A stretch of DNA of 64,000 bases from Haplodiscus bocki (lineage: Eukaryota): assembly GCA_965655095.1 (NCBI GenBank), contig OZ296649.1, positions 58,962,001-59,026,000 on the forward strand, read 5' to 3'. The position numbers were made by a program, and so were the translations under genes. Positions within the stretch are counted from its first letter, which is position 1; every line of letters starts with the position of its first letter. Of this stretch, positions 19,777 to 54,777 are shown in pieces. Under the pieces are notes generated by a model, which had not been told where the DNA came from, searched no databases, and saw only the letters and a program-made list of their open reading frames with translations.

Positions 19777-19976
19777 NNNNNNNNNNNNNNNNNNNNNNNN
19801 NNNNNNNNNNNNNNNNNNNNNNNNNNNNNNNNNNNNNNNNNNNNNNNNNNNNNNNNNNNNNNNNNNNNNNNNNNNNNNNNNNNNNNNNNNNNNNNNNNNN
19901 NNNNNNNNNNNNNNNNNNNNNNNNNNNNNNNNNNNNNNNNNNNNNNNNNNNNNNNNNNNNNNNNNNNNNNNNNNNN
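19777..19976. other. Scaffold gap (200 N)
   Basis: Run of exactly 200 N. ORFs spanning it are artefacts, and the two flanks need not be truly adjacent. Confidence 0.99.
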
Positions 19977-29019: not shown

Positions 29020-29339
29020 AACAATTAGGCTTGCGCGTTATCACAACGTGCAAAATTAAGAATATTTTCTGTGCCCAAATCTTGATTTCAGGTGTAATCG
29101 GGCTCGAAACTCTGACTTGTTCATGTTGAAGCCGAAGTTTATTGGCCAAAGGACATTCAAGCAATCTGGTACGTACTTTTTCTCGTCGAGTCATCTTTTT
29201 GGCGATTTTTTCAATCAGGGTTTGTGAAGCGTTTCTGTTTTGACTTTCAGTCACTTGGTTTTTCCCCGCTTGCTTCCAGGCGATTTTTCTTTGCGCTTTC
29301 CTGTTGCTTCCGAGATGCTCTCATCAGTTAGTTGTTCTC

Positions 29340-31811: not shown

Positions 31812-32990
31812 AATCAAACCTAGGATTCCCTGCCCTTTAAAACATTCCAATGTACCTAATGACCTTTGAACCATTTAAACTATTTGGTCATTCTGTTTAT
31901 TTTAATAAAGAAAACTTCAGTCTTAATTACAAGCTCAAGAGAGAATATAACTACTGCGTGGTTCGTTTTTTTTTAACTAACCGAAATCTAGGATTGCGAC
32001 CCAAGCTCCGAAGTTCTTGTTCCGCTCGCCAATACTGTCTTCTCCAAGATTTAAGGACAATCAAGACCTGAAATTCAAATTTTTGAGTTGGTGACAGTTC
32101 CGAAACAATCCTGATAATGCAATACAGAGAGAAACTATCCTCCAGATAGATGGCAAACTTTTGCTCCCTACCAACCACCCGCTGCCATTCGTTCACGTCA
32201 TCCACCAAACCCTGTCAACCGTCATCCACACCTGATCCAGTTGCACGTCATCTACATCCAGATCCACGAACCTGTAAAACTAAAATTTTGTCTTAACAAC
32301 TCCCCCTTACAGATTGTAAACAATCAACGTGATTTGGGTCTTACGCTCTACTCATTGCTCTCCTGGTCGAATAACTGTGGAACAAGACTTCAGAAAGGCT
32401 GGCGTGCGTTCTATTTTGTGAAGAGAATTTTTTCGCCTACTGCCACTGAGCAAACAAAGTCAAACGTTTATCCTGGCTATGTGTTTCTTATACTCAAGTC
32501 TAGAGATTTTTCTAGTCAAGTGAAAATAATGCCTCTGTCGATGTACTTTGAACTTCACTTCATGACCTTTTCCTAATATCAGTGATGGGAGGCAAGTACA
32601 GCATCGGCACTTGTAGGGCATTATCAATCGCTGCAGGTGCGAGAACTCTTCAGTCAGCGGTAAATGAATTTATTATACCTTAGACCCGACTGAAGAGATG
32701 TGACGAAAACTTTGTGGTTCTTGCAGCCATCTTATTCAACGTTATGAGACGCCGCCTAATCAAAAGAAATGAAACGTTGATGAATAAGAAAACGATAACT
32801 GCAGTTTACTGGTAGTACTTTCGGAACTTTTCTCAAGTAGAATGTCATGTGCACTTGGAGATTTTACTGTCACTGCGGAGACTGCAAGATACACTCAAAA
32901 CTGACATACTTGTGCCTTGTTGGAAAATACTGGGTGAAAACCGATGGGCTCAAAACCTAAAGACTTTACTAGTACTACTAATACTAAAAC
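31812..32990 (+). mobile_element. Internally deleted LINE fragment (3' end of RT with TAC-type tail); also at 48323-49500
   Basis: LNNSPLQIVNNQRDLGLTL...LSWSNN matches the KDLGV..D..LSW..H motif. It ends in a tactagtactactaatact microsatellite-like tail. Confidence 0.7.
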
Positions 32991-34871
32991 AGGAGAAGGA
33001 TCGGCAGGATCAATGAGAACAAACTACAAGTTTTACGCGTAGACTGTCTGTTGCTTCAATTTTGAAGAGCAACTTTCAAATACATTGCTTTCAGTTCAAC
33101 ACTGGAGGCGCAAAAATATCACTGATGAGGAGTTTTCACCTTGTTCGCAAAAGTCGTATTTCAATAATGATTCTGGCACTTTTACAATTGAAGTACAATT
33201 GATATTCAATTTGGGCGCAACGACAGTACGATGGTTAGATTTCAGTTACCAGCCAGAGATTCCTCGGGATGTCTCAATTCATGAAGTATTCCAAAGGTGT
33301 TGGTAATGTCAAAGCCAGTTTTGATGTATTTTTCAAGATGCTTTAGCGGCTGAACTTCTTGCAATTGCTTTCATTTGACTTAGAACATTGTTTTTCAACT
33401 ATCCGATTTTCTTTTTGATCATTTTCAATCTCACCATAGTCTTCCGAGTATTGTTTTTTGCAGAAAATTTCTGATTTTCACTTTAGATTTTTAGAACAGT
33501 TGAGTTGTACACAAATGATTTTTCAATTTAGTTTTTTGTTTGATTGGGTGGCATTGTTGTTTTCATCTTTGTTTCTACATCTATTGGTCTTTCCATGGTT
33601 TTTACGAAGAACTGATTAAAAAAACTTCAAATATCTCTCTGCAGTTACTTTGCATTTGTTAGAAATTTTTCATTTAAAAATTTTTTTTTGGAGACGCAGT
33701 TGATTCTTTTCAACAACAATTCTTAGGCGATTATTTTCCAGTTTTTTTCTTGCGTCCTGTCATTAACATGTTGACATGAAGTTTGTAATTAACTGAGGAG
33801 AGCTTGAGATACCATAATGGAACACCTAAATGTGTTTGAATCACAATTTCTTCGGTCTTGATATTCACTTCTCTCTAAACTACCAGAGTCACTGGTAAAG
33901 TATTAATTTAGTATTCGGTACCAAATATTACTTTTCAGAGCTCTACTGCTCGAGTTCCGACGTGAAGGCAGTTTAGTGGGATCGCTCATTGTTAGCGTAA
34001 AAACGGATTCAAGCATCCGAGTCAAAAAGAGAATTTGACGAGTTCAAAAAAGCATCGATGGTGAAACTCCAAAAAAGGTTGTTTTGGTCCTTCAAGATCC
34101 AATGTGTAGTAGGCTCCCGGAGGCTGATTTATCATCAAGTTTGGAAAACTTTGGCTACCTGCAGTTTGGAGTTAAGCTGGAAAGCAAGTTGCTTAATGAG
34201 CGTTTTCCGATGACCCTCAGTTACGCCCTGCCATTCTGCTGAAAGATCTTGGGCCTAGACAACCCAAAGATGGATAGTCCAAGTAGCAGCAGGCGAGAGA
34301 CTGTTTATGGCAAAAACCCAAGCTTGGAACTCATTAGGCGACTTTTTTCAACTAGCCGGGAACATTATTCAAAGAGATATAGTGTCATGTCATTGACATT
34401 CCTGGCTTTGAATTTATTTGAGAACCACATGAGACACCCTTATAGAACACCCAAAGATTTTAATTCATAGTTTGTTCGTTCTCGTTGTTTTCATCTCTTC
34501 TCTCTAATCTAGCACAGTCGCATGTAGTGAGTTTTTGTTTAGTCTTTGGTACCAACTGAACATTTTCAAAGCCTTCCCGGTCAAATTCTGACATCTTGTC
34601 CTCTGATCTAACCTAATTTTTGCTTCACTCAACTTAGCTTTTTTAACTCGTTTCTTACGGCTCAACCACTACTTATACACTTAATCCTGATTCGTATTAT
34701 CCTTAATCCTTATGGAATTTTTCTTTGAGTTTGAACAAGTACTTGGAAGTGTTTTGGTGGTGACGGCGATACCAACAGGCATGCTTTTTGCAATTGCTTC
34801 TTCGAGATGCTGCTTCACGTTCAAACTTTGCCTGAAGCAACGAAATAATTTAGATCTGTCTGTAACATCCC

Positions 34872-35277
34872 TGTAACATTGCGTGCTATGGTGAAACTAA
34901 GGCAGAAAAGACTTATCTAAAGAATGTGCACATCAAAACGTATCTTTAAAGGAGATATGAACTCTGCACTTTCCGGAGTGTAACCGGCACTTTTTTTAAG
35001 ATAACCTACTCCCTCTCCTCAATAGTGAGACATTATTTAGTATCAATAGCTTAAATTCTTAGTTTAAGGACACAATAAATTTGCGGAATCTAAGTGAAAG
35101 TTGACTTAAACTAACAAAGTTTCTTTTCTGAGACGGGCTGTTGAGTTACCACTGGTAGCAAGTCTAATCGCGGGACCTCGCAGCCACTACTCTCATGAAC
35201 AATCTGAAAGTATTGAACGTTAAAATTCGCTCCGGCTACGAAGAAGAACATCTAGAAGTAGATTCACTTACATTGGA
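34872..35277 (+). mobile_element. Solo LTR (family A) inserted in a Gypsy gag, with 5-bp TSD ATCCC
   Basis: Starts TGTAA, has TTACA near the end and AATAAA at ~35073. ATCCC lies at 34867-34871 and 35278-35282. Removing the insertion restores in-frame gag LSVTSLCDRFCNP. Homologous to 36863-37797 and 51381-51786. Confidence 0.85.
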
Positions 35278-35368
35278 ATCCCTTTGTGACCGTTTTTGCA
35301 ATCCTCATGCACAAGGATTACATATTTTGTAACTTGAGTACCGGAAATTTGACTCAAAACGGACAATC

Positions 35369-36120
35369 GCTATCAAATATGTCTTGATATGATTGCAACT
35401 AAAGCAAGGCAATAGTCCTGCCTAGCAACTCTTTTTTCTAAAGATAGCGTTGAAGCTCTAGAAACTTGCGAAACTGAGCAAATAATACTACTTTCGACGG
35501 AAAAAGCTTTCGACGGAAAAAGCTGAGAACTTATGCTATGGAGCTTGGCTCATTACTTCAGCTACAACACCATGTACTCTATACGAATCGGATATCAAAT
35601 CTACCACATCTGGAGTTATTAAATATCGGGGATGCCGAGTCTATATAATCACTTTGAAGTGCGCAGGGCAATTGTCGTCCTCATCAAGATTAGATCGGAC
35701 GTCAGTATTTGTGAACAACTTCCGGCTATCAAAGTCAATGTAAAAGTTCCAGATCCTTTAAAAAAGTTATGGAGTAAATAACCCGCAATTGATGACATGC
35801 CCTACTACTCTACGAAAACAGAGGAAGGAGTTGCTTCACTAAAAGAAGGCCGTGAGCACTTACTTGAAAGTCCTAAAATGCGCGACCCGAGAAAAACTTC
35901 GATATTGCACGCCCGATTACTTCGAAGATGACTCATGACTCATCTGCGCCCATCGCTCTCTAAGGTGTTTGAATCCCACCTATCTATAAAACATTCTTTG
36001 ATATTGAGTTTGATTTCATTCATTGGTTTTATGCTACTTCATGTCATTGTTGTTTGGTTGTATCACCGTTATAAACTTCGCCACCTGACTACTCGACTTT
36101 GGTGTAGTCTCTTGTCCTAA
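35369..36120 (+). pseudogene. env: env-like envelope glycoprotein C-terminal portion, decayed
   Basis: Cys-spaced ectodomain remnant (RYQICLD..SCLATLF..ETCETE..WLITSA..GCRVYIITLKC..SICEQLP) followed by a hydrophobic TM segment HSLILSLISFIGFMLLHVIVVWLY and a basic tail HRYKLR. Lies upstream of a PPT and an LTR. Confidence 0.55.
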
Positions 36121-36862
36121 AACGCCAAAAGACAACAATTCTCGCAAAACTCCGGCGCGAACATGTGTTAATGAAAACAAAGTAGGCTCAGCCAGTGCAC
36201 CTTCCCCTGACTACTCAGAAAAGGTCAGAGCACTCTCTCGTTCTCTATCAGAATCTTCTTTAAGGGAGAAGACTATGATTTCAGCCTTAGGCTAATTTCA
36301 TGGTACTGCACCAAGCTTGTCGGAGTGGAGCAAAATCGAGCTCAAAGTCAAATTGATGAGCTCCTGCGGTTTCTATTGGAGCGCAAACGTAACGTCTATC
36401 GAGCAGCAAGCTCTTTTGACCGGAAACAGAAAAAAAATGAGTTTCTTAACCACGCTAGGTCTTTTCAAACAGATGGAAAAGGAACCAGAACATTTTTTTG
36501 CCAGCTGATTGTCATCGTCAAAAACGTTTTTATTTTTTATGCACTGGAATTATTTTCACTTTCGTAACTGTAGTGCAAATAAATTTGAAATATAAAAGCT
36601 TCTTGGGATTGGACGACTGTGTTGGCAACAGTACGACAACTCTTCTGGATTCTGCATATTCATTTTTGATACTGACTCTGCTAATGGAACTATTCTCAAC
36701 TCCTCAAAGACGTTTTTGGATCGAATTGAACCTTTTGGCTTCGGAATATCGATTTTTTTATGCCACTCTGGAGATGGCTGTTCTGCATCTGAGACACCTG
36801 CCTTCCTTCGCCTTGTTGCAAATGATGACGAACCAACGGCGAATTGACGGAAACGAGGGTAG

Positions 36863-37797
36863 TGTAGAATTGGATAATGTGGTGAAACTAAAGCAGAAAA
36901 AACTTTTCTAAGGAATGTGCCCATGAAAACGTATCTTTAAAGGAAATATGAACAAAATATGAACTCTGCTCTTTCGGGAGTGTAACCGGCGCTTTTTTCA
37001 AGATAACCTACTCCCTCTTCTCAAAAGTGAAACATTATTTAGTATCAATAGCTTAAATTCTTAGTTTAAGGACACAAGAATTTTGCGTATTCTAAGTGAA
37101 AATTGATTCAAACTAACGAAGTTTCTTTTCTGAGACGAGGTATTGACTTGCCAATGGTACCGATTCTAATCGTGGGACTTCGCATCCAATACTCTCATCA
37201 ACAAGAAACCCGGCTATCCCAGGGATATTTTGCGCATTCCAACATTGTTAAGGATGCCTTTGAGGAGCATGAAGGCCTTTTTTTTGTCAAAATAATCTGT
37301 TTCTTCATGTTTTCTAATTTTTCCAACCTTAATTTTTTCTGATTTTCGCCAAAAAACCTCTAAACTAAAGTGGAAAGACATTTTCAAAAAAAATCTTTTG
37401 ATACGCGTTCTAGAAAAATTTTGCCACATGTAGCGATTTCGAAAATTTTCAAGTTTGTTTTTCGGAAAAACCTGTATTTTTCGATAAAAACCCCAAGTCT
37501 TCCAAATTTCGAACGTTTTGAGTTTCATTCTATTCCAGTCGCATTCCACGCTAAGTTTGCTACACTTTGTTTAAAAAAATAAGTCAGTTTCAGACGTCGC
37601 CAAAGTTACCGATGTTGGCGTGAACGCAACAGGCAAACACCGGGTGAGAAAAACGTCAGTAATAGCCCATTCGAGGTTAAGATTTTGCTTCCATAGTTTG
37701 ATATATGGCGCAAAATGACTTTTCAAAAAAAAATTGGAACTTTAAAACCCGCTCCGGCTCCGAAGGAGAGTGTCTAGATATAGATTCACATTCATTA
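36863..37797 (+). mobile_element. Solo LTR (family A, diverged copy) with nested HINE-like insertion
   Basis: 36863-37200 and 37730-37797 align with 34872-35277. Flanked by GGTAG (36858-36862) and GGTTG (37798-37802), a 1-mismatch TSD. Confidence 0.75.
37200..37730 (-). mobile_element. HINE-like repeat, copy 4, inserted in the solo LTR
   Basis: Colinear with 7668-8250 and absent from the homologous LTR copies at 34872 and 51381. Confidence 0.8.
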
Positions 37798-37802
37798 GGT
37801 TG

Positions 37803-38174
37803 TGCCAGTTCGTGTGCGACGACACGCTACACAGTCAAAACCAGCAGCAGCACAACACAACTGGATCCACTGGTTGGTCTGAAATTTAACATACAGGACA
37901 ATACGATCTTCTCAGAACAACAAGAAGCCTACATCCTATTGCTGAATAGAATAACCTAGACAGACGCCTACAACCATTTGGAGAAGGAATGGACAAGACA
38001 CGTACTTGAGCTAAAGCAATCCTATGATGCAGAGAGCCGCAATCCCAATATTCTGTCAATCCTATTCTTATCCTAACCCAGGACGCTTAATTTAGATGCA
38101 GTAAATCGATAGTTGCGCTCCGATTGTTTTGATAACGATTGTTTTCATCATGCATCTTGAAACCACAGATTTCA
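37803..38174 (+). mobile_element. Putative LTR of the macrodomain-bearing Gypsy element
   Basis: Once the solo LTR is removed, the purine tract GGAAACGAGGGTAG abuts TG (37803). The segment ends TTTCA and is followed by TTGG (PBS position), ~150 bp before gag. No second copy in the window confirms it. Confidence 0.45.
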
Positions 38175-38317
38175 TTGGGAAGAATGACCCAAATTGATAA
38201 GGCAGTATTTGTGATTTTTCTTTCATTTTCCCTCATTACTTTTTGAAACTGAATCTTTTCACTAGGTTCTCATATTTCGGAAAAATCTCGCGAACCGTAA
38301 CGACGTAAATTCGGCTA

Positions 38318-39580
38318 TGAAAATTGCAGTACAATCAACAGTATCTCTTCCAAAATACGGAGGAAGTTCAACTGACAATTGGACTGACATTGAGTCTTCG
38401 ACGGATAGTTGATGTTACAGCAATCTAAGCTAGTCAAAGAGTAGGAATCTTGAAACTTCACTTGAGAGATCCAGCATTACGGTTTATCCACACATTAGAT
38501 TGAAACACGAAAGCAGACTTAGAGCTAACAATCACAGCCATGAAAAATCATTTTTGCAACCCGAATTTGAGAGAAATTCATCATATAAACTTAGAAAACA
38601 TGAGATTTAACCACAAAACAGTATCCTGAACAATGTCTGGTGAAACTTCAAAATCTAGCGATGGAAGCTTATCCAACACCAGCAGATCAACCAGTGGCAC
38701 CGGTTTAAACTAGTGTAAAAAATGACCAAGACAGATGCGATCGGGAAACGAGAGAAAATGACACTTGGAGAATTTTTGCCCAGATGGAACGAAATTGACA
38801 GATAATTAGATTGTTCAAGATTGCAATGCCCATTTTCAAGGGACTTTAACTTTTAGAAGAACCGGAGAATTCCACAATCAATGTTTTGTGCACAAAAGCT
38901 AAGCGAAAATTTGTTTTGAGAGAGCAATGCCCAGTAGATGACTGGTTTAGAGACGGATTTACTGAGTTGAGTACAGATAAGTCCTAGAAATTCCAAATGG
39001 TCACGACCAAAATGACAGAAAACCGAAACTCTCTTAAAGAGACATTCCATGCCTTCACTGAAAAAATTACTCAGCCTCAACAAGGAACATTGAGCCAAAA
39101 CACAAGCGAAAATTTTAAATCACAACAAAAATGGAGAGGAAATTTAAGCGGATGCTTAAATCGATATTGTCGAAACAGAGGATCCTATAATAATCAAGGA
39201 TCGAATAGCAACAGTACCAAAATCACAACCAAGGAAGATGCGGGAATAATTTTACCGGAAATTTTCGCGAGAGAAGTAATTATAGAGGAAACAATTACAG
39301 AGGGAACATTCGTGGAAATTTTTCAAACACTGACAACAGATACACTAATTTTCAACAAGATGATAGTCAAAATTCTGGAACGACACTAAACACAGGAAAT
39401 GTGGAAGGACATATTGAAAGAACAGCATTCTCAAAAGGTTTGCTATTCTTGTGGTTATACTAATCACACATCAAAATTTGTGAAGCGAGAGGAAGAAGCA
39501 GTTCACGAGGTGGACAAGTTCCATTCAACTCCCAGACAAAGAAACTCAAAACTCCACTCACGTCAGCTAGCTCAGAAGCG
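38318..39580 (+). pseudogene. gag: Gypsy gag, decayed
   Basis: SLPKYGGSSTDNW...LHLRDPALRF...HFCNP, an N/Q/R/G-rich low-complexity region, and a zinc knuckle CYSCGYTNH (~39440). Homologous to the gag at 51200-52870. Confidence 0.75.
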
Positions 39581-39739
39581 TCTAACCTTTCGAATTCAAT
39601 GCATTACTCTGAGCACCATTATCTAAATGTTTTCTCACCAGAGCCAGACTTATGAACCAAGAATCAGCTGTAGGAAAACTCTATCTTTAATATGGATGAA
39701 TCTCATCATCCAGTAAACTTAGAAATGAACGCGGTCATG

Positions 39740-42700
39740 TCACTTGATGGGGAAAATTGATGTAATTATCGGGTTACAGTTTGAAAATGACGTCAAGAGG
39801 AAAGCATTAATTGATAGAGGAGCTTGTGGTAACGCCATGCAGGATTTTTATGAAAAAGTGGAATATCGTCGATTTCACTCAGAAATACAGCAAGCTCGTT
39901 TCTTAAATGTCAAAGTAGCATCAGGGCCCTTTTTTAAAGTTCTCGGCCAAATTGACGTCAAATATAAATTTCATGAGCATTATTTTGAGGATACATCCTT
40001 CATACTTCCCTCTAAGATTAGTGTTGTAGGCAACCCATTCTTTCGAAAACACAGTTTTGACTTTATTCCTGCAGAAAACTTACTTATACTATCGGGAATG
40101 ACTTACGAATTGAATGAAAAAAACCCTGGCGAAGGACCTAGAACTTCCGAAAAAACGTTTTGATGAGCCAGAAAGTTTTAATCAGGCCTCTGCATCAGGA
40201 AATTCTACAGACAAAACCAGATTTTTGGAAAAACCTCGATGGAAACACTGGATTGATTATCCCAGGTGACGATCCCGAAAATAGTACAGAATTGAGACTT
40301 TAATCATCTGATCTCACAGCTGCAAAGCACTATAAAGTTTCAATTTTAGCAATCAATTTGAATGACCACGCTGTAACTTTCACAAAAAACAAACAGGTAG
40401 CAGATTTCCAATTTCTCTCCACAAAAAGAGGAGAACTTAATTGGAATCCCACCAGAATTTTTAGCACTTGACTAAGCGAAAAATGGAGTTTTTTTCTGCG
40501 TAATTGATCAACTTATTCGAGTGGGAAAAACGAGCAGGAAAGCAACCTAAACGCCCTCTTCCAGAATTTGACAATCTGGTATCCTGCGCCAGAAACATGT
40601 CAAAATCCTGAAAATCTTTTTACCTTGCAGAGGAATTTTTTTGACAACATAGCTGAATTGCAAAAACGATCTTCTAGGTCTGGGAAATAACGAAACCGAA
40701 GAGGAAACCTTCGAAATGGAAAGGTTTTCAGTTGAGTAGTGCGACATTTCGGCGAAACATAGATTTGATGTTGGATACATTACAGAGTTGAAACTTGAGG
40801 TGAAACTAGCACATGATTTACCTGTTCATGTACAAAGTGCCCCCCACCCCAATTCACCTGCGAGATGAAATTCTGGTTGAATTAGCTCCAATGCAATAAT
40901 ATGGCATTGTCACTTTTCCGAACTCTGAGTATTGTAGTCCAATCTTTGCACAACGAAAGCCATGAGAAAAACTGGGACTATTGATCAATTTGAAGCGTGT
41001 TAATCACCTTCTTCGAATGATTACAGCGACCACAGTTTCCCCATTTCGAAAATGACAGATGCCGCTCGTCATTTTGCCAGACAGACTTTGTTTACCAAAC
41101 TAGGTTGTCCACACGTTTATCTTTGTATGCAAATGGCTGACTCCTTATCAGTCCAACTCTTGTCTTTCAACTTTGCCTCGAGAGCATATGCCTATTCAAG
41201 ATTAGCTCAAAGTTTGAACAAATCAGTGACCGGATTTAGCTCATTTGCCACATCCTATCTTGATGCTTGCCTTGCGGCCAACTTATGTACACAATTCATG
41301 GATGATATCGGATGTGGAGTGGAGACATTTGTCCCCGCACTTAGACAAATTTTTGATTTTTTGTGAAAATCAGGACTTCGGTTGACACCTCATAAATTTG
41401 ATTTCGGCATGACCTCGATAAACTTCTTCGGCGACACGATCAGCTCGAAAGGACTTAAACCGGAAACTAAGATAGTGGAAAAAATTTCAAGAACTATGAA
41501 ATTAGCGGCAACAGTTAGACAACTGAAGAGATTGGTCGATTGGTTTTGTTTCATCGTACATTTTTGCCTAATCTTGCTCAAAATTTGATGCCTTGGTATA
41601 AATTATTTCGGTCAGATGTTGACTTTTCCTTGAGTGACGATCATTTAAAAAGTTTCGCAACAATAAAGGCCTTTTACAAGCTACAACAATCACTCAGGCT
41701 AACGAAGACTCGAGAACAATGTTATTTTATGTGATGCATGTTATTGCAGTAGTGGATTCGTTCTCATGATAGACGGCCAGCTCAAACAGAAAGACGGGAA
41801 GCCGAAACAAGCATACACACCAGTTCCGTTTGGCTCCTAATTTTATAACTCGAGTCAATTAAAAATGTCTACCTTTTGTTAAGAAATTTTAGCACTTTTT
41901 CGCTAAAATGCTTTTCCTATTTTATCTGGGATGCAGAAAAAGCGGTGATAGTTTTGACGGATAGCAAAAGTCCAACTAGTTTTTCCAGTCGAAACGACTG
42001 CATCCATCATTACGGAACATTATGAATAGAGTGATCGCTTATAACATAGTCTTAGCGCATATACGTGATCGAGCAATTATAGCGACAGATTTTCTGTCAA
42101 AAATGCAAACTGATCCAAGTCAGATCTTGGAACTGCAATTGCTTGACTCAATTCCAATGAAACATATTGATATGTTCCAATTAAACAAAAGCTAAAACAC
42201 CCGATGGATCTTTGCTGTCGATCGAATCGAGAAGCGTCTTACATGAAACAAAACAACCGCAAATACAACAAGGTTTACTGGAACAGTTACAAGCTAACGA
42301 TGCCTCGCCCAATTTTGTTCGTAACCTGAACGACATTCTTGAGAGTGCTTAACCAAAGGAGACCATTGAACTTTTTGCAGTAAAATGAACGCCTGAAATT
42401 AATTTAGTTCAAGGAAATGACCCATTGAATTTTTTGAACATCGAAATCGAATACACAAGTAATAGGCTTTCAGACAGAGAGGAAAAATGATCAAGCCTTC
42501 CGCAAAGTTAAAGCCTGGATTCAAAACGGATGCACAGATGATATTACATGTGCATCATTTAAACTGAAAAATTACCATATGCACCTATCGCGTTTGCAAG
42601 TACAAAAAGTATTCCTTACTCATCTTTTTTTGACAGAGTCGGACAGATTTACCATCATCATGTGTGCGATCAGCTACATTTGAGACAAGAAGTTATATAT

Positions 42701-43760
42701 GGAATTCACTACTCACCAACAGGTGGCGACATCGGCATTGTCCGAACCGCCCAAGAGTTCCACAAGAGATTCTACTTTCCGGGATCCTCTGAATTCCTCA
42801 TGGATTACATCAAAAATTGTCGCTCTTGTTCGACACTGAAAAAAATCAACATGAAGCAACTGAAACCTCCTTTGCAGCCAATCAATTGGAACATTTTTTT
42901 CCGGGAGAAATGATGCAAATTGACTTGAGTGGTCCTTTCCAATCACCGATTTACAAGTATGCTCCCTCGGGCATTGATGTATTTTCAAAACACCCGTTTG
43001 CGGTTTCGCTAACACCGGTACATGCCGGAAGCGTTGGTAAAGCATTGGTTTCAATACTTTTTCAACACAGTTACATTCCTACGACAGTTCTCTCGGACCT
43101 GGAAACAAGCCTCGTAGCAAAATTACAGCATGAATTGACTGATTTACTTGAAATTCAATTACAACACGCTTCTTTGAAACATCCACAGACCATTGGAGTA
43201 GTTGAACGCTCATACTCGGCGTTGAAACGTACTCTCAAACCTAATACGGACGAAGATTGGACTACATGGTATCGGTATGTTGACCTAGCTACGTTTTTTC
43301 ATAACACTTCTGACCATTCATCGATTGGATGTGCCCTCAGCTCATTGTTTCACGGCATAGACCCAGTCAAACCTAATGAATTGCGGTTCCGGAGCCATGT
43401 TATAGCGAAAAAGAACTCACGTCAGAATATTCAGTAGATTTGCAATGTTGCTGCTTCCCAGACGCAAAATCGAGACTGCTCGATGCATATCATAAATACC
43501 GTACCTACTATATAAAGGCAGCAGCAAAGGTGTTGGCTAACCAGGAGTATTGCTTACTGTTGAATCCTTCGTTGCTTCCGCAGAATGACTTTGCTGCGAA
43601 ATCGACAATCATCTGTCTCTCATTGTTTAAGTTGAAAAAGTTGTCACAAAATCAAACTACTTAGTTGGAAAGGTCGGTACGCCCTAAACTTAATGTGTGC
43701 ATCGCATTAGACTGCGACAGTTGAGCCTAAAAATCAAGCTGAGGCTATATCTTTAACAAC
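39740..43760 (+). pseudogene. pol: Gypsy pol (protease-RT-RNase H-integrase), multiple stops and frameshifts
   Basis: Protease ALIDRGA; RT SEYCSPIF, FTKLGC..VY, QFMDDI; RNase H MCDA...GFVLM; integrase H..GG.IG...C..C, QIDLSGPF, VLSD, HPQTIGVVERS. The PR-RT-RH-IN order is Ty3/Gypsy. Confidence 0.92.
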
Positions 43761-43864
43761 AGATGAGTTTCGGCCTGATCCAATTGCGTTCCGAGCTTGA
43801 AATATTTGAGTCAGCGCTAGAGCAATCATTTGAGGATACCGCATTTTAACTAACTCATCCTCAA

Positions 43865-44428
43865 TTGTCGAAAAAAGAGCACGATGAAGCTCAATACAAT
43901 ATAGGAGGAGCAATTGCTGGTCCAGGGGTTGCCGTGCCCGCAGCTATTGCCCCAGTAGTTGGACCCCATGATGCACCAGCGCAAGTTGACGCACCACAGT
44001 GTAATTCTGGGGCAGGCGGAAGCCCCTCGTTCCCAACACCACCCGCACCTGAGCTAGAAAATCCGGTAGAATTGGAAAACCTATTTTTTCCTGAACCTAA
44101 TCAACAACTGACACCGGCTCATGTACACAACAACAATTCACAAGCGGGTGTGCCTGCGCAGGGAACCGTGAATGCTTCCACTGCACTCGTTCAGCCTAGT
44201 CCTCCTTTTGCATTCGCTCGGCGGACTGACGCTCGTTCGCAAGGTCATACACAAGGCCATGCTACGGTAACACGAACAGGTCCGCAGCCTCCGCGCATTT
44301 TATTTGATTGCTACGATCATGATAGGGTCATCCTTACTAGACAACAATTGACTGCCGATGCTTACTACGAGTATTTGGCTCAACAATCTGCGCTACCGCA
44401 AACACGTGACGAAGACATTAGCACTTGA
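43865..44428 (+). CDS. Pro/Ala/Gln-rich low-complexity ORF, likely integrase C-terminal linker
   Basis: 187 open codons rich in P/A/Q directly after integrase and before the macrodomain. Confidence 0.5.
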   Translation: MSKKEHDEAQYNIGGAIAGPGVAVPAAIAPVVGPHDAPAQVDAPQCNSGAGGSPSFPTPPAPELENPVELENLFFPEPNQQLTPAHVHNNNSQAGVPAQGTVNASTALVQPSPPFAFARRTDARSQGHTQGHATVTRTGPQPPRILFDCYDHDRVILTRQQLTADAYYEYLAQQSALPQTRDEDIST

Positions 44429-44639
44429 AAGTCCTTGCTCAATGAACTCGGAAACAGCTGGTCACCTCAAAAAATCCGACGGCGGATTTTCACAAAACTC
44501 CCGAAAAATCTATTTTGAAAAAGCCATACCCTGATAGATCAAATATAGGACAACGGGGTCCTTCTTCTGATATCTATTCGGCAACATTTCAGCTGAATCC
44601 GAATGATGCTAATCAGACTGACATCATTGAGTTACCTCA

Positions 44640-45075
44640 CAGCATTCACATCTCAGAAGGTGACATTTTTAGTGATCCTGAAGGAAATTTCGCACATTGC
44701 TTTTTCTCTGATTTAGCAATGTCTGCAGGGATATCAACGCAGTGTCTTCACATTTTTCCAGACTTCACTGAAATACGCAAAACTCGGAAATTTTTACCTC
44801 CAGATTTTTTAATCGCACATTTTAATCTTTTGCCTAACAATTGGATAAACAATTTAATCACGAAATGGACATGATATGACAAGCCAAAATACTCGGACCT
44901 GGACAAATGCTTTTGCCGAATGAAAAGTCATATATTGCAACATCATATTAACGAAATTCGCTTACTTCAAATTGGATGTGGACTTGACAAACTGGAATGG
45001 AACCGAGTTCTGCAGATAATTATAGCAATGTTTGGCAATTATGACATTGACATTGACATTTTCCTTCTCCGAGCT
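44640..45075 (+). pseudogene. TARG1/OARD1 (Poa1p-like) macrodomain, ADP-ribosylhydrolase family, element-encoded; one in-frame TGA at 44872
   Basis: ISEGDIF...FAHCFFSDLAMSAGI...NLITKWT*YDKPKY..L..C..RMKSH...IRLLQIGCGLDKLEWNRVLQIIIAMF aligns motif for motif with TARG1 (GDLF, LAHCIS.D..MGAGIA, LITK, KPTY, MKSH, IGCGLD.L.W). ORFs 44515 and 44920 are in the same frame. Confidence 0.9.
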
Positions 45076-45448
45076 CCAACCAGCCTTAGTCCGGCAAATC
45101 TTAATGGCAGAGGAATATTCCTCAGATGAAGAAACGCCAAGACTTGTTCGAGAAATGAGTAAGACGTCAATACCCTCCCACGACTGACCGAAATGATCGT
45201 GAGACACCGAGCTGAGATACGTCACACAAGTTGACTTGTTTGCCTGATTATACTTATCATAATTTTGACTAGAAATCTGATAAATTTGACTGGTGTTTAC
45301 CTCAAGTAAACGTTTAAAATTATTTGTTGTCAACCAATTCTTATTACAAGTCGTCAATCACTACTTACGAGGTGTCAACTAGAGTGCAGAGTTCAAGAGT
45401 AATTAACTCATTGCATCTAAGATTTATACGATTTTCCCACGACAGAAA

Positions 45449-48322
45449 ATGAACAATCTATTTTGGGGTTTTCCACACCGAACTTTCTCTTGCAATTTTT
45501 TCAAAATTTTACTATTAAACATAGCCGGCACATTAGTGTTCAACCTACAACGGTCCGTCTGTACCCTGAGCGCTGGCAAAGTCAAGTGTTTACGGACGAT
45601 GAAATTGATGGAGTTCCGCACAAATTTGAATTGGATAGGTGTCCTTGATTCATTACATCAACATGCTGATTCGGACTGCCTCCATCAATTCCCACAATGG
45701 CTTATCGATGATGAGCATTCGCAACGGCGCACATTTTTCTTCACGGTTTTGTAAATTGACACCTGATATCGCATAATGAATTTGGATGAATTATCATTTA
45801 TCTCATCAGCCTCTATAGAAAAACACTTTCCGCTTCTCTCCTCAGTCTCACATTAGATATTCAACGTATGCAAAAACCATGAGTCGTTGTTTCGGAGAAT
45901 TCCAATCAGTGGATACATTTGTGAATTTCATGGTGCTCCCGTTGTCTGGAGAGTGACCCCTTCATACATAAGCCCCCGAGTGGACTTGGAATCCGTTACT
46001 GGAATCAAGGAACCATCATATACAAAGATTTTGAAAATTCACAGGAATGGAGCACACTCATGAGTGCCGCAGCTCTCCTTGGTCATGATTTCAACGTTGT
46101 TGAAGAACTCTGTCAACTCGGTCTGGTTGGCACGACAATTCAGGTGCCGTTTTTAATTTTCGGAAACACATTATGCTGTCACGATTTTGATCACTTCTCT
46201 AGCCAGGACTATCTGTCACTGAATTTCCATACTCTAGTTGTTATATATTTGTAACTTGCACCTGGTTTTCGAAAAAAGTTTTTTAATTGTGTCACGCGGT
46301 ATCAGTTTCCAACATCCATTTTGAAAATCGTAGGTTTTAGTTCATTTATTCGGAAAAACTTCCGCTCTGGCTGCACTTTTCATTGTTTAAAGAGGAAAAT
46401 TCTCATCTCCCGTTAGGTTTTCTCGCCCATATGAGAAAGATTCATAGCCCTCGTCATTGTAGCCTTCTCTCAAGCGTTTACTAATAATTTCGTGACGTTT
46501 CAGTTTTTGACTTTGTACCAAGTAAACTGGCTGTATTACCATGAATTCTCCGAATGTGGAGTCTTCCGACGGGTTCAACTGGTCGGTACTAGCGCTGATT
46601 GTGGTTACCCCCCTTTGGTCTTAACGTTCTGCCGATGGAGTTACAGACATTTACCAAATTGGAACGACGCCGTTCTCCCCAACACCGGAATGAAATAATG
46701 GCGTGTCTCGTCAAGTATTCAGGAACGAGCAGCCAGGACTCTCATCGACTTGCTGATGCTGAATATTTTTTAAGCGCACTCAATGACCGGGCAAGAACCG
46801 CCGATAGCATAACTCTTTGTTGAGTTTTTGATCAAATTGAAATGTAAGCAATGAGAGATATTTATAGTCCACAGTTAATATGTTTATTTTGTCTGATTAA
46901 ATTGACAGCAATGAAAGTTCTGAATTTTTTAAATCAAGGCCTAACCAACAAAAACGTGGGCTTTTTCGCCATTTTGCGCTCAACTTAAACGAAACTGGAA
47001 AAACTATCCCCAACGTTAGATAGCCCTAGGTTTTGTTACCCTACGTGGAGAATATCAGTATCCTATCTTGTGATCCCTACAAACGGTACGAAAACTTCAC
47101 TCCTGAAGTAGTGAAGGCTACAGACTTCATTTTCGCAGATTACAATTTTTTGCAAAAAGATTGCACAAAAGAACCAGTTGGACCATTGTGGAATTTTTTT
47201 CAATTAACCGCACTTGTATTGTGTTTTCCCCTTTATCCATCTAAATTTTTGCATGACTTTGGCTTTATTCTTCAAAGGTTTTCGTTTCTCAATTTCTGAA
47301 TGGAAAGAAGGCCTCACAAAATCCCGGATTTTTTTCTTGGGTATGCAATTTCGCCTTGAACACAGTTGCAGGCTCCCCTGAACAGCTAAACTTTGGGAAA
47401 AACCGTTCAAGGACTGGCTCACACCATTCGTACAGCTTTCAAGGAAGAGACACACGTCTCAGACGCCAGCATCTCCTTCTTCAAGGAAGTGAAATTCTGC
47501 ATAACACCCTCACCTAAAACAAACGCAGGGAAAAAACAAGACCGATAACAAACACTGTAACTGACCTAGTGCGAAAATGAGCAATGGAAAATGGTTTTGG
47601 GTACCGTCCGTCTGGTAACAGTATGCACCTGCTGGCGGAATAAGGATGGTTATCATTAGTCCGTTGTTTGAAAATGTATGTTCTCACAGTTTTCCACCGG
47701 GGGGGGGGGGGGGGGCGAGAGATTGACATTGCCTTCCCGAGATATCATCATCCGACATGCCAATCTCCCCTGCGTTACACTTTTCCAAATGAACCAGACA
47801 CGTCAAGCGTTTTCATACGCCAAACAGTTTACGTAAAGATGCCCCCTTAGAGGAAAAGTCGGTGAATTGAACTACGATCAACTTGTCATTGATACCCTTT
47901 GCTTTACCGCAGCCATCCCTCGTTTTCCGAATTGTCTAATATGGAAAGGCCCAACCCGTCCGGGGTACACGTTCTTAGAAAGCACATTTACTTCAAATTG
48001 ACACCTCGTGGGGCCACTATCACTGATTTGAATGTACTAGATTACAGTCCAGGTCATCAATCTCTTTTGAACTGGTTTGCGCCATATTCATAGGAGCCCA
48101 ACGTGGGAAAGATACACGTACTCGCCCAGGTATACAAAATGGCTGATTCTTATCTTTGATTCCTCCCACGGTAGGTACCTTCTGGTCATACCTACCTTCG
48201 ACGCTGCGTTTCCGAGAAGCAACTTGACTTCGGCAAAATTTTGCATCATTTCTGAGAATACCTAGGTCTGTTTGAACCCCCCTTGTGAAGATCTGAGTCA
48301 ATCCTTGAGTGAAACGCTAACG
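45449..48322 (+). other. Extended 3' internal region of the Gypsy element with decayed orphan ORFs
   Basis: Chain of plus-strand ORF pieces (45449, 46060, 46492, 47033, 47668, 47899) with no domain I recognise. No 3' LTR is seen before the duplication breakpoint. Confidence 0.35.
47699..47715 (+). repeat. Poly-G tract (17 G)
   Basis: Directly visible in otherwise AT-rich sequence. Confidence 0.95.
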
Positions 48323-51300
48323 AATCAAACCTAGGATTCCCTGCCCTTTAAAACATTGCAATGTTCCTAATGACCTTTGAACCATTTAAACTATTTGGTC
48401 ATTCTGTTTATTTTAATAAAGAAAACTTCAGTCTTAATTACAAGCTCAAGAGAGAATATAACTACTGCGTGGTTCGTTTTTTTTTAACTAACCGAAATCT
48501 AGGATTGCGACCCAAGCTCCGAAGTTCTTGTTCCGCTCGCCAATACTGTCTTCTCCAAGATTTAATGACAATCAAGACCTGAAATTCAAATTTTTGAGTT
48601 GGTGACAGTTCCGAAACAATCCTGATAATGCAATACAGAGAGAAACTATCCTCCAGATAGATGGCAAACTTTTGCTCCCTACCAACCACCCGCTGCCATT
48701 CGTTCACGTCATCCACCAAACCCTGTCAACCGTCATCCACACCTGATCCAGTTGCACGTCATCTACATCCAGATCCACGAACCTGTAAAACTAAAATTTT
48801 GTCTTAACAACTCCCCCTTACAGATTGTAAAGAATCAACGTGATTTGGGTCTTACGCTCAACTCATTGCTCTCCTGGTCGAATAACTGTGGAACAAGACT
48901 TCAGAAAGGCTGGCGTGCGTTCTATTTTGTGAAGAGAATTTTTTCGCCTACTGCCACTGAGCAAACAAAGTCAAACGTTTATCCTGGCTATGTGTTTCTT
49001 ATACTCAAGTCTAGAGATTTTTCTAGTCAAGTGAAAATAATGCCTCTGTCGATGTACTTTGAACTTCACTTCATGACCTTTTCCTAATATCAGTGATGGG
49101 AGGCAAGTACAGCATCGGCACTTGTAGGGCATTATCAATCGCTGCAGGTGCGAGAACTCTTCAGTCAGCGGTAAATGAATTTATTATCCCTTAGACCCGA
49201 CTGAAGAGATGTGACGAAAACTTTGTGGTTCTTGCAGCCATCTTATTCAACGTTATGAGACGCCGCCTAATCAAAAGAAATGAAACGTTGATGAATAAGA
49301 AAACGATAACTGCAGTTTACTGGTAGTACTTTCGGAACTTTTCTCAAGTAGAATGTCATGTGCACTTGGAGATTTTACTGTCACTGCGGAGACTGCAAGA
49401 TACACTCAAAACTGACATACTTGTGCCTTGTTGGAAAATACTGGGTGAAAACCGATGGGCTCAAAACCTAAAGACTTTACTAGTACTACTAATACTAAAA
49501 CAGGAGAAGGATCGGCAGGATCAATGAGAACAAACTACAAGTTTTACGCGTAGACTGTCTGTTGCTTCAATTTTGAAGAGCAACTTTCAAATACATTGCT
49601 GTCAGTTCAACACTGGAGGCGCAAAAATATCACTGATGAGGAGTTTTCACCTTGTTCGCAAAAGTCGTATTTCAATAATGATTCTGGCACTTTTACAATT
49701 GAAGTACAATTGATATTCAATTTGGGCGCAACGACAGTACGATGGTTAGATTTCAGTTACCAGCCAGAGATTCCTCGGGATGTCTCAATTCATGAAGTAT
49801 TCCAAAGGTGTTGGTAATGTCAAAGCCAGTTTTGATGTAATTTTCAAGATGCTTTAGCGGCTGAACTTCTTGCAATTGCTTTCATTTGACTTAGAACATT
49901 GTTTTTCAACTATCCGATTTTCTTTTTGATCATTCTCAATCTCACCATAGTCTTCCGAGTATTGTTTTTTGCAGAAAATTTCTGATTTTCACTTTAGAAT
50001 TTTAGAACAGTTGAGTTGTACACAAATGATTTTTCAATTTAGTTTTTTGTTTGATTGGGTGGCATTGTTGTTTTCATCTTTGTTTCTACATCTATTGGTC
50101 TTTCCATGGTTTTTACGAAGAACTGATTAAAAAACTTCAAATATCTCTCTGCAGTTACTTTGCATTTGTTAGAAATTTTTCATTTAAAAATTTTTTTTGG
50201 AGACGCAGTTGATTCTTTTCAACAACAATTCTTAGGCGATTATTTTCCAGTTTTTTTCTTGCGTCCTGTCATTAACATGTTGACATGAAGTTTGTAATTA
50301 ACTGAGGAGAGCTTGAGATACCATAATCGAACACCTAAATGTGTTTGAATCACAATTTCTTCGGTCTTGATATTCACTTCTCTCTAAACTACCAGAGTCA
50401 CTGGTAAAGTATTAATTTAATATTCGGTACCAAATATTACTTTTCAGAGCTCTACTGCTCGAGTTCCGACGTGAAGGCAGTTCAGTGGGATCGCTCATTG
50501 TTAGCGTAAAAACGGATTCAAGCATCCGAGTCAAAAAGAGAATTTGACGAGTTCAAAAAAGCATCGATGGTGAAACTCCAAAAAAGGTTGTTTTGGTCCT
50601 TCAAGATCCAATGTGTAGTAGGCTCCCGGAGGCTGATTTATCATCAAGTTTGGAAAACTTTGGCTACCTGCAGTTTGGAGTTAAGCTGGAAAGCAAGTTG
50701 CTTAATGAGCGTTTTCCGATGACCCTCAGTTACGCCCTGCCATTCTGCTGAAAGATCTTGGGCCTAGACAACCCAAAGATGGATAGTCCAAGTAGCAGCA
50801 GGCGAGAGACTGTTTATGGCAAAAACCCGAGCTTGGAACTCATTAGGCGACTTTTTTCAACTAGCCGGGAACATTATTCAAAGAGATATAGTGTCATGTC
50901 ATTGACATTCCTGGCTTTGAATTTATTTGAGAACCACATGAGACACCCTTATAGAACACCCAAAGATTTTAATTCATAGTTTGTTCGTTCTCGTTGTTTT
51001 CATCTCTTCTCTCTAATCTAGCACAGTCGCATGTAGTGAGTTTTTGTTTAGTCTTTGGTACCAACTGAACATTTTCAAAGCCTTCCCGGTCAAATTCTGA
51101 CATCTTGTCCTCTGATCTAACCTAATTTTTGCTTCACTCAACTTAGCTTTTTTAACTCGTTTCTTACGGCTCAACCACTACTTATACACTTAATCCTGAT
51201 TCGTATTATCCTTAATCCTTATGGAATTTTTCTTTGAGTTTGAACAAGTACTTGGAAGTGTTTTGGTGGTGACGGCGATACCAACAGGCATGCTTTTTGC

Positions 51301-51877
51301 AATTGCTTCTTCGAGATGCTGCTTCACGTTCAAACTTTGCCTGAAGCAACGAAATAATTTAGATCTGTCTGTAACATCCCTGTAACATTGCGTGCTATGG
51401 TGAAACTAAGGCAGAAAAGACTTATCTAAAGAATGTGCACATCAAAACGTATCTTTAAAGGAGATATGAACTCTGCACTTTCCGGAGTGTAACCGGCACT
51501 TTTTTTAAGATAACCTACTCCCTCTCCTCAATAGTGAGACATTATTTAGTATCAATAGCTTAAATTCTTAGTTTAAGGACACAATAAATTTGCGGAATCT
51601 AAGTGAAAGTTGACTTAAACTAACGAAGTTTCTTTTCTGAGACGGGCTGTTGAGTTACCACTGGTAGCAAGTCTAATCGCGGGACCTCGCAGCCACTACT
51701 CTCATGAACAATCTGAAAGTATTGAACGTTAAAATTCGCTCCGGCTACGAAGAAGAACATCTAGAAGTAGATTCACTTACATTGGAATCCCTTTGTGACC
51801 GTTTTTGCAATCCTCATTCACAAGGATTACATATTTTGTAACTTGAGTACCGGAAATTTGACTCAAAACGGACAATC
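48323..51877 (+). repeat. 3.55-kb direct duplication, copy 2
   Basis: See 31812-35368. This copy continues seamlessly into gag at 51878, whereas copy 1 jumps into env-like sequence. Confidence 0.98.
51381..51786 (+). mobile_element. Solo LTR (family A), duplicated copy with ATCCC TSD
   Basis: Near-identical to 34872-35277, with the same TSD. Confidence 0.85.
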
Positions 51878-54479
51878 CTGAAATTTTTCTCATAACTTAG
51901 CAAACAAAGGCAATTAAAGCCTCTCCGAATTCAAATCCTCCAATGGTTGTCCAAATAAACGCAAATGCACCAGATGAGGCTGTTGAGCAAATTCGGTTTG
52001 ATCAAGACACAGAGCGTCGCGCAGAAGTTAGAAATTCTGCCCAAGAGGATCGTTCAGTACAAGTTCGGCCGCTAATTACTTAAAACTTGCCTGGCTGGCT
52101 ACGTACAAAATTGATTCAGCAAACAGAATGGACTTCAGTTGAAGACTTCCGTTTTTTGCACGAAAACTGTTATCCATATATATAGTCTGTGACAGAAAGA
52201 TTCAGTCATGGACGCGCTCAGTGAAATCGGTCCTTCAGTAACAGATGCACTTGCTACGACCTTCTTAAAATTGAGCAGTAGTCAAGAAGCTATGGAATTT
52301 GGGTTAGATGAAGTGCGCACAAAAATCGAAGAACGCATTACTGCTCTAAATCAGTTGAACTGTTTTGAAAAGGAATCAGTCGTAGCAATCTCAGTGGGGC
52401 TCTTCATCACAAAATCGCGGACAAAATTCGAACTCTTCGCAAGGAGGTCGTGGTAATTTAAGAGGCCGCTACCGCAGTAATAACCAGGGATACAGAGGTC
52501 CGCGACCGAACTTTCAAATGCCTCAGTGACAAAAACACTACCAGAGCGGTTATACGGCTCGACAAGTCACAACACAAAAATTTCCCATCGCACAATTCAG
52601 ATTCTCATCTCAGCCACAAACCTCAATTTTTCCGCCGCAAAATCAAAGTTTTGAGCTACAAAATGAGAATTTTCAAGCTCACAGTTCGAAATTTCAACGG
52701 AGACCTACGTTTGAAGTTTTCACGCCTTGTCCTAACTATATGCCGTAAGTGCAGCAGTCAGCAACGACGTGTCATAAATGCAATTTTCCTAATCATTCAG
52801 CAACTCCTATTTTCCTTATTCCAGTGCCAAAGGAAATCCTCCCACAAACGGAATACAAAATCCATTCAATCAGAATTGAAACTGAATCAGCAGTACAAAG
52901 TTCACAAGCCAGTCTCAGCAACGAAAGTCCAGTCGGAAAAGCCAGATACTTGTAAAGAAATTTCCTATATTGACCGCCAGTAATGTGTGTTGTAGTGTCT
53001 GTGGAGGGAGTTAACCCCCCCTATGTTGACCTATTTTTTTTCTCAAATTAAACGGCGAGACGGAATAGATACAAGCTCCTGAGCAAATGCTTCATCTGAA
53101 TCATTTTTTAACGATCCGAAGTTCAATGAACCCAAATTAAAAACTCTAGAAATACCTTCATTTTTTTCTTTTCGAATGTCTTCTGGTCAGCGAGTTGCGA
53201 TTGACAAACCAACGAATCTTTCGTTTCAAATTGGGCCTCATTGTTTTCAAGGCAGTTTTTCAATTATGCTCACCGTGAACAATGTTTTGCCTGGAAATAT
53301 TTTTTTCAAAAAGTACAAGATCGCTTTTGATCCGAAACGAAATGTACACTTGCCAGATTTAACAGTTCAGTTGAATCAAATTCTACCTCAACAGGGCATA
53401 AAATCGTATTACCGAGAAACTATCTGAAATTCCTCCCGTTTTAACGCGAAAAGTACACTTTCCGCTTCAGTCTCAAGCACTTTTGGAGTGCCATTCGGCG
53501 TAGCATTCTGATCAGTACATATGTTGCAGGGGACTCGTTCTTCCTGGTGATCCACTAGAAGGCAAATATAGCATTGTTCTTTTATCTCATCTCCCGGTGC
53601 AATTGATGAATATAGTATAGTTTTGGTGTCAGCCATAACTTCGATGATCAAATTACTTTAAATAATCAAACTGAAAAAACACATTTGGAAATTTTGAATA
53701 AAGCATAAGCTGATAACCTAATTGGAGTTGACCCTGAGTTCATTTCCTTTGCCAGAATGCATAACCAGGGTAATTTGGAGGCGAAGTGAACCACTTGATT
53801 CAATATTCTCATTTTCAAAAGATTGAGACACCAACAGGTCGCCCACCTCCGGATTAGACGAAACTCCGGCTTCCAGAGGAACTACCAGCCCTACGAGATC
53901 TGAAAAAAGATTGGGGCATCGCTTTTGTTTTTTTCCAACCGACTTCTCATGTTGAAAAGAAATCAAACAGTTCCATTGCTGACTCTGTCATTGGTAATGC
54001 CGCTGATGGGGTAACTACAGTTGATGACACTTTTGAACTTCTTCGACGCAATCTTTGACAAAAACAACTTGTTCATCCTATTGAAGTTAATCTTGAGACT
54101 GATCATTCATCAACCAGTGCTTGATTGACTTCAAGTCTCTTGTTTAATCATAATCAAAACTGATGTCAATATCAACTTTTATCATGGATCTTATAAATGT
54201 AAGAGATTTCTGGCTCAACACAATAAAAACATTTTGAGACTGGCGCAATCAACTACTTCTAGTAAGATCATATGGCGATTTTGGAGCAATTCATTACTTA
54301 TGCTGCCTCTTCTACGAATAACTTTACTTTTCAATTTTCTTCGGAGTTCTGTGGGTTCTATTTTGAAATTGAATTTCCTCAACTTGGGCGTTTCGGTCAT
54401 TTGTACAACATGTTGCAACTGCATTCCCCCAACCGTATGATGATCCTTCTCAATAGGTCAACTGTTTGAAGGGAGGAAG

Positions 54480-54777
54480 TGTCACGTACTGAAACAATAG
54501 CTTTTGTTGAGGAGAAACGATCTAGATATGTGAACGAGAAATGCCTTTAAATTAAAACACTTTATTCATGCTAATTTAACTTCAAACTTTGTGTTTTATT
54601 TGTTCATATTGTTTAGTTGAACATTGAAAACTGAGCAAGAAAGCAACCAGCTCAGAACAGTAACAGCTCGATTAAAATAAAGTTTTCTCTTTTTATGACA
54701 GAAGTAGGATTATATCTACGCTTTCGAAGTTCTAGTCCGCTCCCCAACCATCGTCAGCAGTTGGAATGAATGTAACA
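54480..54777 (+). mobile_element. 3' LTR (family distinct from A) preceded by polypurine tract
   Basis: GAAGGGAGGAAG (54468-54479) is followed by TGTCAC...GTAACA inverted termini, with AATAAA at ~54676. Confidence 0.7.

Follow-up and report, generated by a model that had tools for sequence, protein, structure and literature searches.

We report here a block of ~13 kb in Haplodiscus bocki that carries the remains of a retroelement in permuted order, with a TARG1-like macrodomain at the end of the Pol polypeptide, probably in the same element as a viral-type env gene. The block (block B, 35369-48322, plus strand) lies in a 64,000-nt stretch of contig OZ296649.1, and this whole stretch is called the window below. 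Block B reads, in order, the 3' part of env, a polypurine tract (PPT), a long terminal repeat (LTR), gag, a pol region with protease (PR), reverse transcriptase (RT), RNase H (RH) and integrase (IN), a macrodomain, and extra open reading frames (ORFs). There is no closing LTR, and no second LTR copy was found anywhere within the block. A first-pass annotation of this DNA had read the same order without a 3' LTR, and the domains were indeed found in that sequence. We interpret block B as a relocated slice of an old, decayed, env-bearing retroelement, probably cut from a tandem, and put the probability of this reading at about 0.55. F-type env genes in Ty3/gypsy elements are already known; what may be new is the TARG1-Pol fusion, in combination with accessory ORFs and an env that is probably of the F type.

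The Pol domains in block B are decayed and can still be assigned. A gag-like region at 38317-39720 (plus strand) was recognised by eye from its translations, with a tail rich in N, R and G and a Cys/His knuckle-like motif; it gave no Pfam match, in a comparison with Pfam alone. The pol region (39729-43800, plus strand) has its domains in the order PR-RT-RH-IN, which is the order of Ty3/gypsy Pol. The RT matched Pfam at E 7.6e-4, below the curated cut-off, and the integrase zinc domain at E 1e-8, while the protease was recognised by its motif and a weak match to the database protein P0018. A long-protein search gave six matches among 4,731 candidates, and three of them (P0014-P0016) are close relatives with 63-75% in-frame identity to pol. 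The best PDB match of P0015 is Ty3 Gag-Pol (6e-42), followed by 7ksf, a PR-RT-RNase H chain (7e-26); through this relative the RT appears closest to Ty3/gypsy.

A low-complexity linker separates the end of the integrase (~43800) from the macrodomain, which lies in a C-terminal Pol segment at 44446-45126 (plus strand) with one in-frame stop. The segment aligns to residues 934-1145 of P0014 and 1373-1584 of P0015, and it matches structures of human C6orf130/OARD1/TARG1 with E 1.6e-16 over ~140 aa. Both P0014 and P0015 end an unbroken Pol in the macrodomain, P0015 being a single polypeptide with its OARD1 match at residues 1456-1582; the macrodomain is therefore part of Pol and not a separate ORF. 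P0016 stops just before the macrodomain, and the three distant Pol relatives (38-39%) showed no match to the macro region. The decayed copy in the window keeps the positions equivalent to Lys84 and Asp125, counted on the OARD1 alignment; these two residues are the catalytic pair of TARG1 (PMC8120803). The macrodomains of P0014 and P0015 are more diverged, with E 3e-7 to OARD1 compared with 2e-16 for the decayed window copy. Judged from its family and position, the macrodomain in the active ancestor would most likely have served in ADP-ribose removal or binding by an integrase-containing complex. Viral macrodomains provide an analogy for such a role.

The block begins in the middle of env, as had been noted before. 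The env 3' part (35369-36295, plus strand) is decayed and F-type-like, includes a transmembrane segment and tail, and matched P0003 with a tblastn E value of 1e-70. The earlier env extent to 36860 is too long: coding stops near 36295, the end of the tail being placed by eye. When one frame of 35371-36117 was used as query, 13 env relatives were found among 1,013 candidates, and 11 of them share 64-74% in-frame identity with it. All 13 align from 35365-35371 on; in the relatives of full length (772-787 aa) this corresponds to residue ~440. A 703-position env profile run in six frames over the whole window left positions 1-436 unmatched. Its best score in 44400-48400 was 1.0 bit, compared with the 192 bits that the 3' part reached, and a genuine 20-residue env fragment at 35877 still scores 6.3 with this profile. 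The 13 relatives used in tblastn revealed no env N-terminus near 48322, the best stray match in the block being residues 1-43 of P0009 at 46635 with E 0.63. At least 1.3 kb of env, i.e., the first ~436 residues, is missing between the block ends.

The env is likely of the class I F type, as judged from its relatives. Nine of the 13 contain a furin-like R-x-x-R motif followed by a hydrophobic, Gly/Ala-rich stretch resembling a fusion peptide; the relatives have 10-17 cysteines, and the full-length ones carry a C-terminal hydrophobic segment. The Atlas neighbours of the env are the Baculo_F and paramyxovirus Fusion_gly clusters (0.95-0.96), with a recognition score of 1597, below the threshold of 2300. 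No match to the env was found in Pfam, PDB or PHROG, and its predicted structure is of low confidence (pLDDT 31). Between env and the PPT there is also a stop-free antisense frame of ~100 codons (36560-36861, minus strand) with no family match, a possible accessory ORF.

ORF remnants follow the macrodomain for ~3.2 kb, and this accessory-ORF region (45421-48322, plus strand) is cut off at 48322. With a single frame as query (frame 1 of 45421-48321), five proteins were matched among 1.84 billion representatives at E 1e-14 to 3e-4. Since P0022-P0024, which are related to one another, match two places in the window (~45960-46110 and ~46450-46790), one small accessory domain appears to be duplicated. 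Some of the accessory matches (P0020 is one example) may stem from related DNA in which the ORF was called in the wrong frame, and these would show repetition and not coding. A word-based search with the accessory ORFs found none among 4,622 candidates, a search that is insensitive with one frame and many frameshifts. No Pfam family scored above cut-off in the region, P0022 gave no usable Atlas match, no fold was assigned, and the predicted structure of the accessory domain is of low confidence (pLDDT 43).

Both ends of block B coincide exactly with the borders of a direct duplication. The first-pass annotation had not mentioned this duplication. The duplicated segment A is a 3,557-bp patchwork of transposable element fragments, with its left copy at 31812-35368 and its right copy at 48323-51877, both on the plus strand. 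The two copies are 99.5% identical: they differ by 16 substitutions (5 transitions and 11 transversions) and two one-base indels, both in base runs. The left flank is unbroken through the start of A, where an LTR at 31765 aligns with an LTR at 54480 across 31812 (score 120; the best of 200 shuffles reached 45), and the right flank by eye carries on a gag-like stretch. This continuity on both sides indicates that the original locus was L-A-C (left flank, A, right flank), so that A|B and B|A are the joints that were newly formed. Most parsimoniously, a single recent event duplicated A and brought in block B. An identical 4-mer stands at the start and at the end of segment A (31812-31815 and 35365-35368; also 48323-48326 and 51874-51877) and thus brackets block B on both sides (chance ~0.006); microhomology or a stagger of 4 bp could account for it. 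The A copies were also considered as giant LTRs and rejected, for they do not end in TG/CA and the start of A falls within another LTR.

Block B is much older than this event. It contains 3.7-5.4 frame switches per kb, with four in 747 bp of env and 16 in 3,437 bp of pol, and the similar decay of env and pol is weakly consistent with an origin in one element. Set against the 0.5% divergence of the A copies, the decay indicates that an old locus was recently copied at the DNA level, or else an assembly misjoin; block B was already decayed when it was placed at its present locus. Ty3/gypsy elements are bounded by two terminal LTRs and a short target-site duplication, and block B has one LTR and ends in env and accessory DNA. 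The absence of two terminal LTRs is a property of the slice and says nothing about intact copies. None of 48 stretches was confirmed in a scan of bacterial and archaeal genomes, so no contaminating copy was found there, and the window holds no Rfam match and no tRNA gene.

The presence of the PPT had been correctly annotated. The tract (36849-36862, plus strand) has 12 purines out of 14 and stands directly before TG; a purine tract of such quality precedes 40 of the 4148 TG sites in the window. It abuts LTR Y2 (36863-37794, plus strand, ~400 bp net), which is split by a repeat, Z, and is colinear on either side of Z with the solo LTR Y1 (34872-35277, plus strand), our reference for Y2. Compared with 34872-35274 of Y1, the identity is 85.5% over 36880-37204 and 80% over 37737-37796, with 43 differences in 328 aligned bases. 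Y1 has its CA end at 35272 plus five extra bases and is flanked by a 5-bp target-site duplication (34867-34871 and 35278-35282); the probability that an exact 5-mer would turn up by chance within 8 offsets is 0.013. In the Y1 region (34861-35282) the five extra bases separate the CA end from the right-hand copy of the target site; the first 8 bases of Y1 recur 11 bp upstream in the target, possibly reflecting an unprocessed end or an LTR-like target preference. Repeat Z (37200-37716, plus strand) is a dispersed repeat, 76.6% identical to 7668-8192, with related pieces at 242-596, 3100-3185 and 54777-55375. The Z family is non-coding, with 62-85% identity between copies, internal subrepeats of ~130 bp and no Rfam match, and in two cases it lies within an LTR or at its end. 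The nested solo LTR of the first-pass annotation is thus an LTR, though not a single unit: it consists of a Y1-type LTR plus the separate repeat Z inside it.

The LTR proposed earlier was instead 37803-38174 (plus strand, 372 bp), which could be either the 5' leader or a second LTR. Its ends are as described, TG..CA followed by T-TGG, and it may yet be an LTR; a second copy in the window, an AATAAA signal and homology to other LTRs were all lacking. In comparisons with the other LTRs of the window its similarity did not exceed that of shuffles (of 200 shuffles, 115-169 scored as high), and the CA-n-TGG pattern occurs at 149 sites in the window, with ~1.2 expected by chance in every 520 bp. For the candidate primer-binding site after 38174, the complementary sequence had no match in one published table of such sites, and the longest self-priming complement is 6 nt for each LTR candidate, an uninformative length. 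We prefer Y2 as the shared LTR because the PPT adjoins it and it is colinear with Y1, and also because the candidate has neither AATAAA nor LTR homology, CA-n-TGG is common, and a nested Y2 needs a base-exact insertion at the PPT border. That Y2 is the element's own LTR, shared in a tandem, seems to us somewhat better supported than not, a judgement and not a computation. Hence the tandem slice sharing one LTR, one of the two origins proposed earlier, is kept as the preferred reading, with the shared LTR moved to Y2 (36863-37794).

Several observations weigh against the tandem slice built on Y2. Within the window there is no donor locus and no intact two-LTR copy, and the relatives are proteins without genomic context. 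Downstream of Y2 we saw no clear primer-binding site. The two LTR families of the window have a hexamer in common, 40-75 bp ahead of their 3' ends, and this hexamer recurs ~55 bp before 38174; it was spotted after the fact and has 11 plus-strand sites in 64 kb, four of them in known LTR copies. A target-duplication-like match of four out of five bases (chance 0.13 within 7 offsets) flanks Y2, with TG coming right after it; this match and the hexamer both favour 37803-38174 being an LTR. As to the proposed function, P0014 and P0015 (the latter by eye) lack both residues equivalent to Lys84 and Asp125, which weakens a catalytic role, and the sequences suggest a drift of the macrodomain to a pseudo-enzyme in sister families. 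If 37803-38174 is the 5' LTR of a macro-bearing gag-pol, an env-bearing element ending in Y2 may have inserted into or in front of it and the slice been copied later, leaving env and macrodomain unlinked. The TG...CA-T-TGG structure, the typical 372-bp length and the hexamer near the candidate's 3' end fit such a pair of elements, nesting is common in the window (Y1 in the gag-like stretch, Z in Y2), and cases of two elements inserted at a single site have been described (10.1101/158386). This history requires a same-strand insertion within ~3% of the host element, however, and it has to face the like decay of env and pol and a candidate without AATAAA or homology to other LTRs, so we regard it as unlikely. 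Still less probable is the anatomy first proposed, in which Y2 is a solo LTR nested at the PPT/LTR border, 37803-38174 is the single LTR, and env and macro-Pol belong to one element in a tandem slice. Here the near-duplication around Y2 with its TG, the hexamer, and the example of Y1, which shows that the family leaves solo LTRs with 5-bp duplications, are offset by the need for an insertion base-exact at the PPT border, by the one mismatch, and by an end 2 bp shorter than that of Y1.

The first-pass annotation had also offered an opened 1-LTR circle, which would yield the observed order, and circular intermediates do give permuted duplications (PMC7450558). In an opened circle the env 5' part should precede 48322, but env 1-436 is absent there and at least 1.3 kb of env is lacking between the ends, so the expected rejoining of 48322 to 35369 fails within the window and the two ends are not adjacent in the element map. 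Nor was the block near-intact at insertion: its decay and nested repeat, compared with a flanking duplication diverged by 0.5%, do not suit a fresh reverse transcript. A circle excised from an old copy by LTR-LTR recombination and reinserted after a large loss is possible, yet it explains no more than a linear slice does, and we think a circle of either kind very improbable. That a single element natively had the order env-gag-pol, and that Y2 is a solo LTR nested between env and gag, has a precedent in the ENV-GAG-POL elements of two arachnid genomes (PMC13524379); the PPT-like tract right before TG would then be there by chance (~0.01), and this explanation can hardly be correct. A different objection concerns placement only and is compatible with any anatomy, namely that the A-B-A layout is an artefact of assembly or of a chimeric read, which would also count against a relocated slice. 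The differences between the A copies are error-like in spectrum, with their 5 transitions, 11 transversions and indels in base runs, and the window does contain a 200-N gap. Old LTR copies in the window have a similarly low ratio (22 to 21), on the other hand, and two new joints are needed where an allelic misjoin of a simple insertion accounts for one alone; an artefact is thus doubtful.

For the relocated tandem slice we propose two events widely separated in time. The donor locus, elsewhere, would have been an env-bearing Ty3/gypsy element with LTR, gag, pol with a C-terminal macrodomain, accessory ORFs, env, and LTR. Unequal LTR-LTR recombination would be the simplest way to have produced a tandem that reads env-PPT-LTR-gag across one shared LTR (Y2), and this tandem would then have decayed and acquired repeat Z. 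Much later, a recent repair or template-switch event may have copied in an arbitrary-ended 13-kb slice while duplicating 3.5 kb of the acceptor (L-A-B-A-C); the integrase would have had no part in this recent copying. We infer the tandem donor and the template switch from the structure of the locus. Env and macro-Pol form one element both when Y2 is shared and in the anatomy first proposed, and for this reason we consider it likely that the two belonged together. Of the lineage claimed earlier, the fusion of the macrodomain to a Ty3/gypsy Pol and the F-like env are supported, and their presence in one element is likely only. A macrodomain at the integrase end of Pol might act on the replication/integration complex or on target chromatin, and so counter PARP-type restriction or tether integration; chromodomain tethering in MAGGY (10.1101/2021.11.30.470311) is an analogy for the latter.

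Ty3/gypsy elements with an F-type env, the 'ancient errantiviruses' of Chary and Hayashi, are widespread in animals (PMC13524379). The H. bocki element resembles them in its Ty3/gypsy Pol, in its size of 13-15 kb, and in the make-up of its env relatives, which have a furin-like site, a hydrophobic stretch like a fusion peptide, an ectodomain rich in cysteines and a transmembrane segment at the C-terminus; unlike them, it has a TARG1-like domain at the end of Pol and at least 3.2 kb of accessory ORFs after pol, and the present copy is dead and permuted. In the parts of that paper available, 'macro' had no match in the main text and matched species names in the supplement matches seen (4 of 14), while peptide searches of the supplements gave no match, a weak result as these may hold no protein sequences. 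Epsilon-like endogenous retroviruses of fish also carry macro-domain ORFs (Basta et al. 2009, cited in PMC4977317) and are likewise env-bearing retroelements that captured a macrodomain; those are Retroviridae with macro as an additional ORF, whereas here the Pol is Ty3/gypsy-like and the macrodomain is in the same polypeptide. With TARG1/OARD1 hydrolases the domain shares the sequence family and, in the window copy, the Lys84/Asp125 positions; it differs by its fusion to a retroelement Pol and by the loss of both residues in P0014 and P0015. The available portion of PMC4695847 contains nothing on macrodomains in retroelements. We found no literature report of a TARG1-like macrodomain in a Ty3/gypsy Pol, which is weak evidence of novelty because subscription papers and Repbase were largely uncovered. 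As for the layout, shared-LTR tandems, which are common in Drosophila, have a single LTR with a 3' part on one side and a 5' part on the other, as seen here (10.1101/158386), and permuted duplications formed via circular DNA or MMBIR have blunt or microhomology joints (PMC7450558), a further likeness. Unlike shared-LTR tandems and circle-derived permutations, this slice is bracketed by a 3.5-kb acceptor duplication and its ends close no circle.

The permuted order is a local rearrangement of minor importance, and the lineage matters more. We consider it reasonably probable that invertebrates harbour an undescribed, 'complex' Metaviridae lineage, 14 kb long or more, which combines in one element an env of the F type, several accessory ORFs (with one domain duplicated) and a TARG1-like ADP-ribose hydrolase fused behind the integrase; some sister families would have the catalytic form and others a pseudo-enzyme. 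If env and macro-Pol belong to one element, an invertebrate retrovirus-like element has captured a TARG1-type ADP-ribose eraser. Among retrotransposons, this would parallel the way in which RNA viruses use macrodomains for counter-defence, and it would point to PARP-based restriction of retroelements or to ADP-ribose-guided integration outside vertebrates. The filter of PMC13524379 at first allowed a POL-ENV gap of 1,000 nt for non-insects, with extensions of 3,000-5,000 nt for some groups (3,000 for protostomes); the accessory stretch of at least 3.2 kb behind pol exceeds both the 1,000-nt limit and the protostome one. If the lineage is real, short pol-env gap filters would miss this class, and surveys demanding env near pol would undercount env-bearing elements with long accessory regions.

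Other features of the window are briefly noted. A 200-N scaffold gap lies at 19777-19976 in low-GC surroundings. A fairly young non-LTR element occupies 26000-29320 (minus strand), with a PHD-finger ORF1 (Pfam E 4e-6), an RT ORF (E 9e-9) and, by eye, an endonuclease-like stretch; we take it to be CR1/L2-like. A second, distant gag-protease remnant, its gag recognised by eye, is found at 34440-34871 and 51787-54776, interrupted by Y1 and without RT and IN; it ends in a PPT and the LTR at 54480, which is related to the LTR at 31765.

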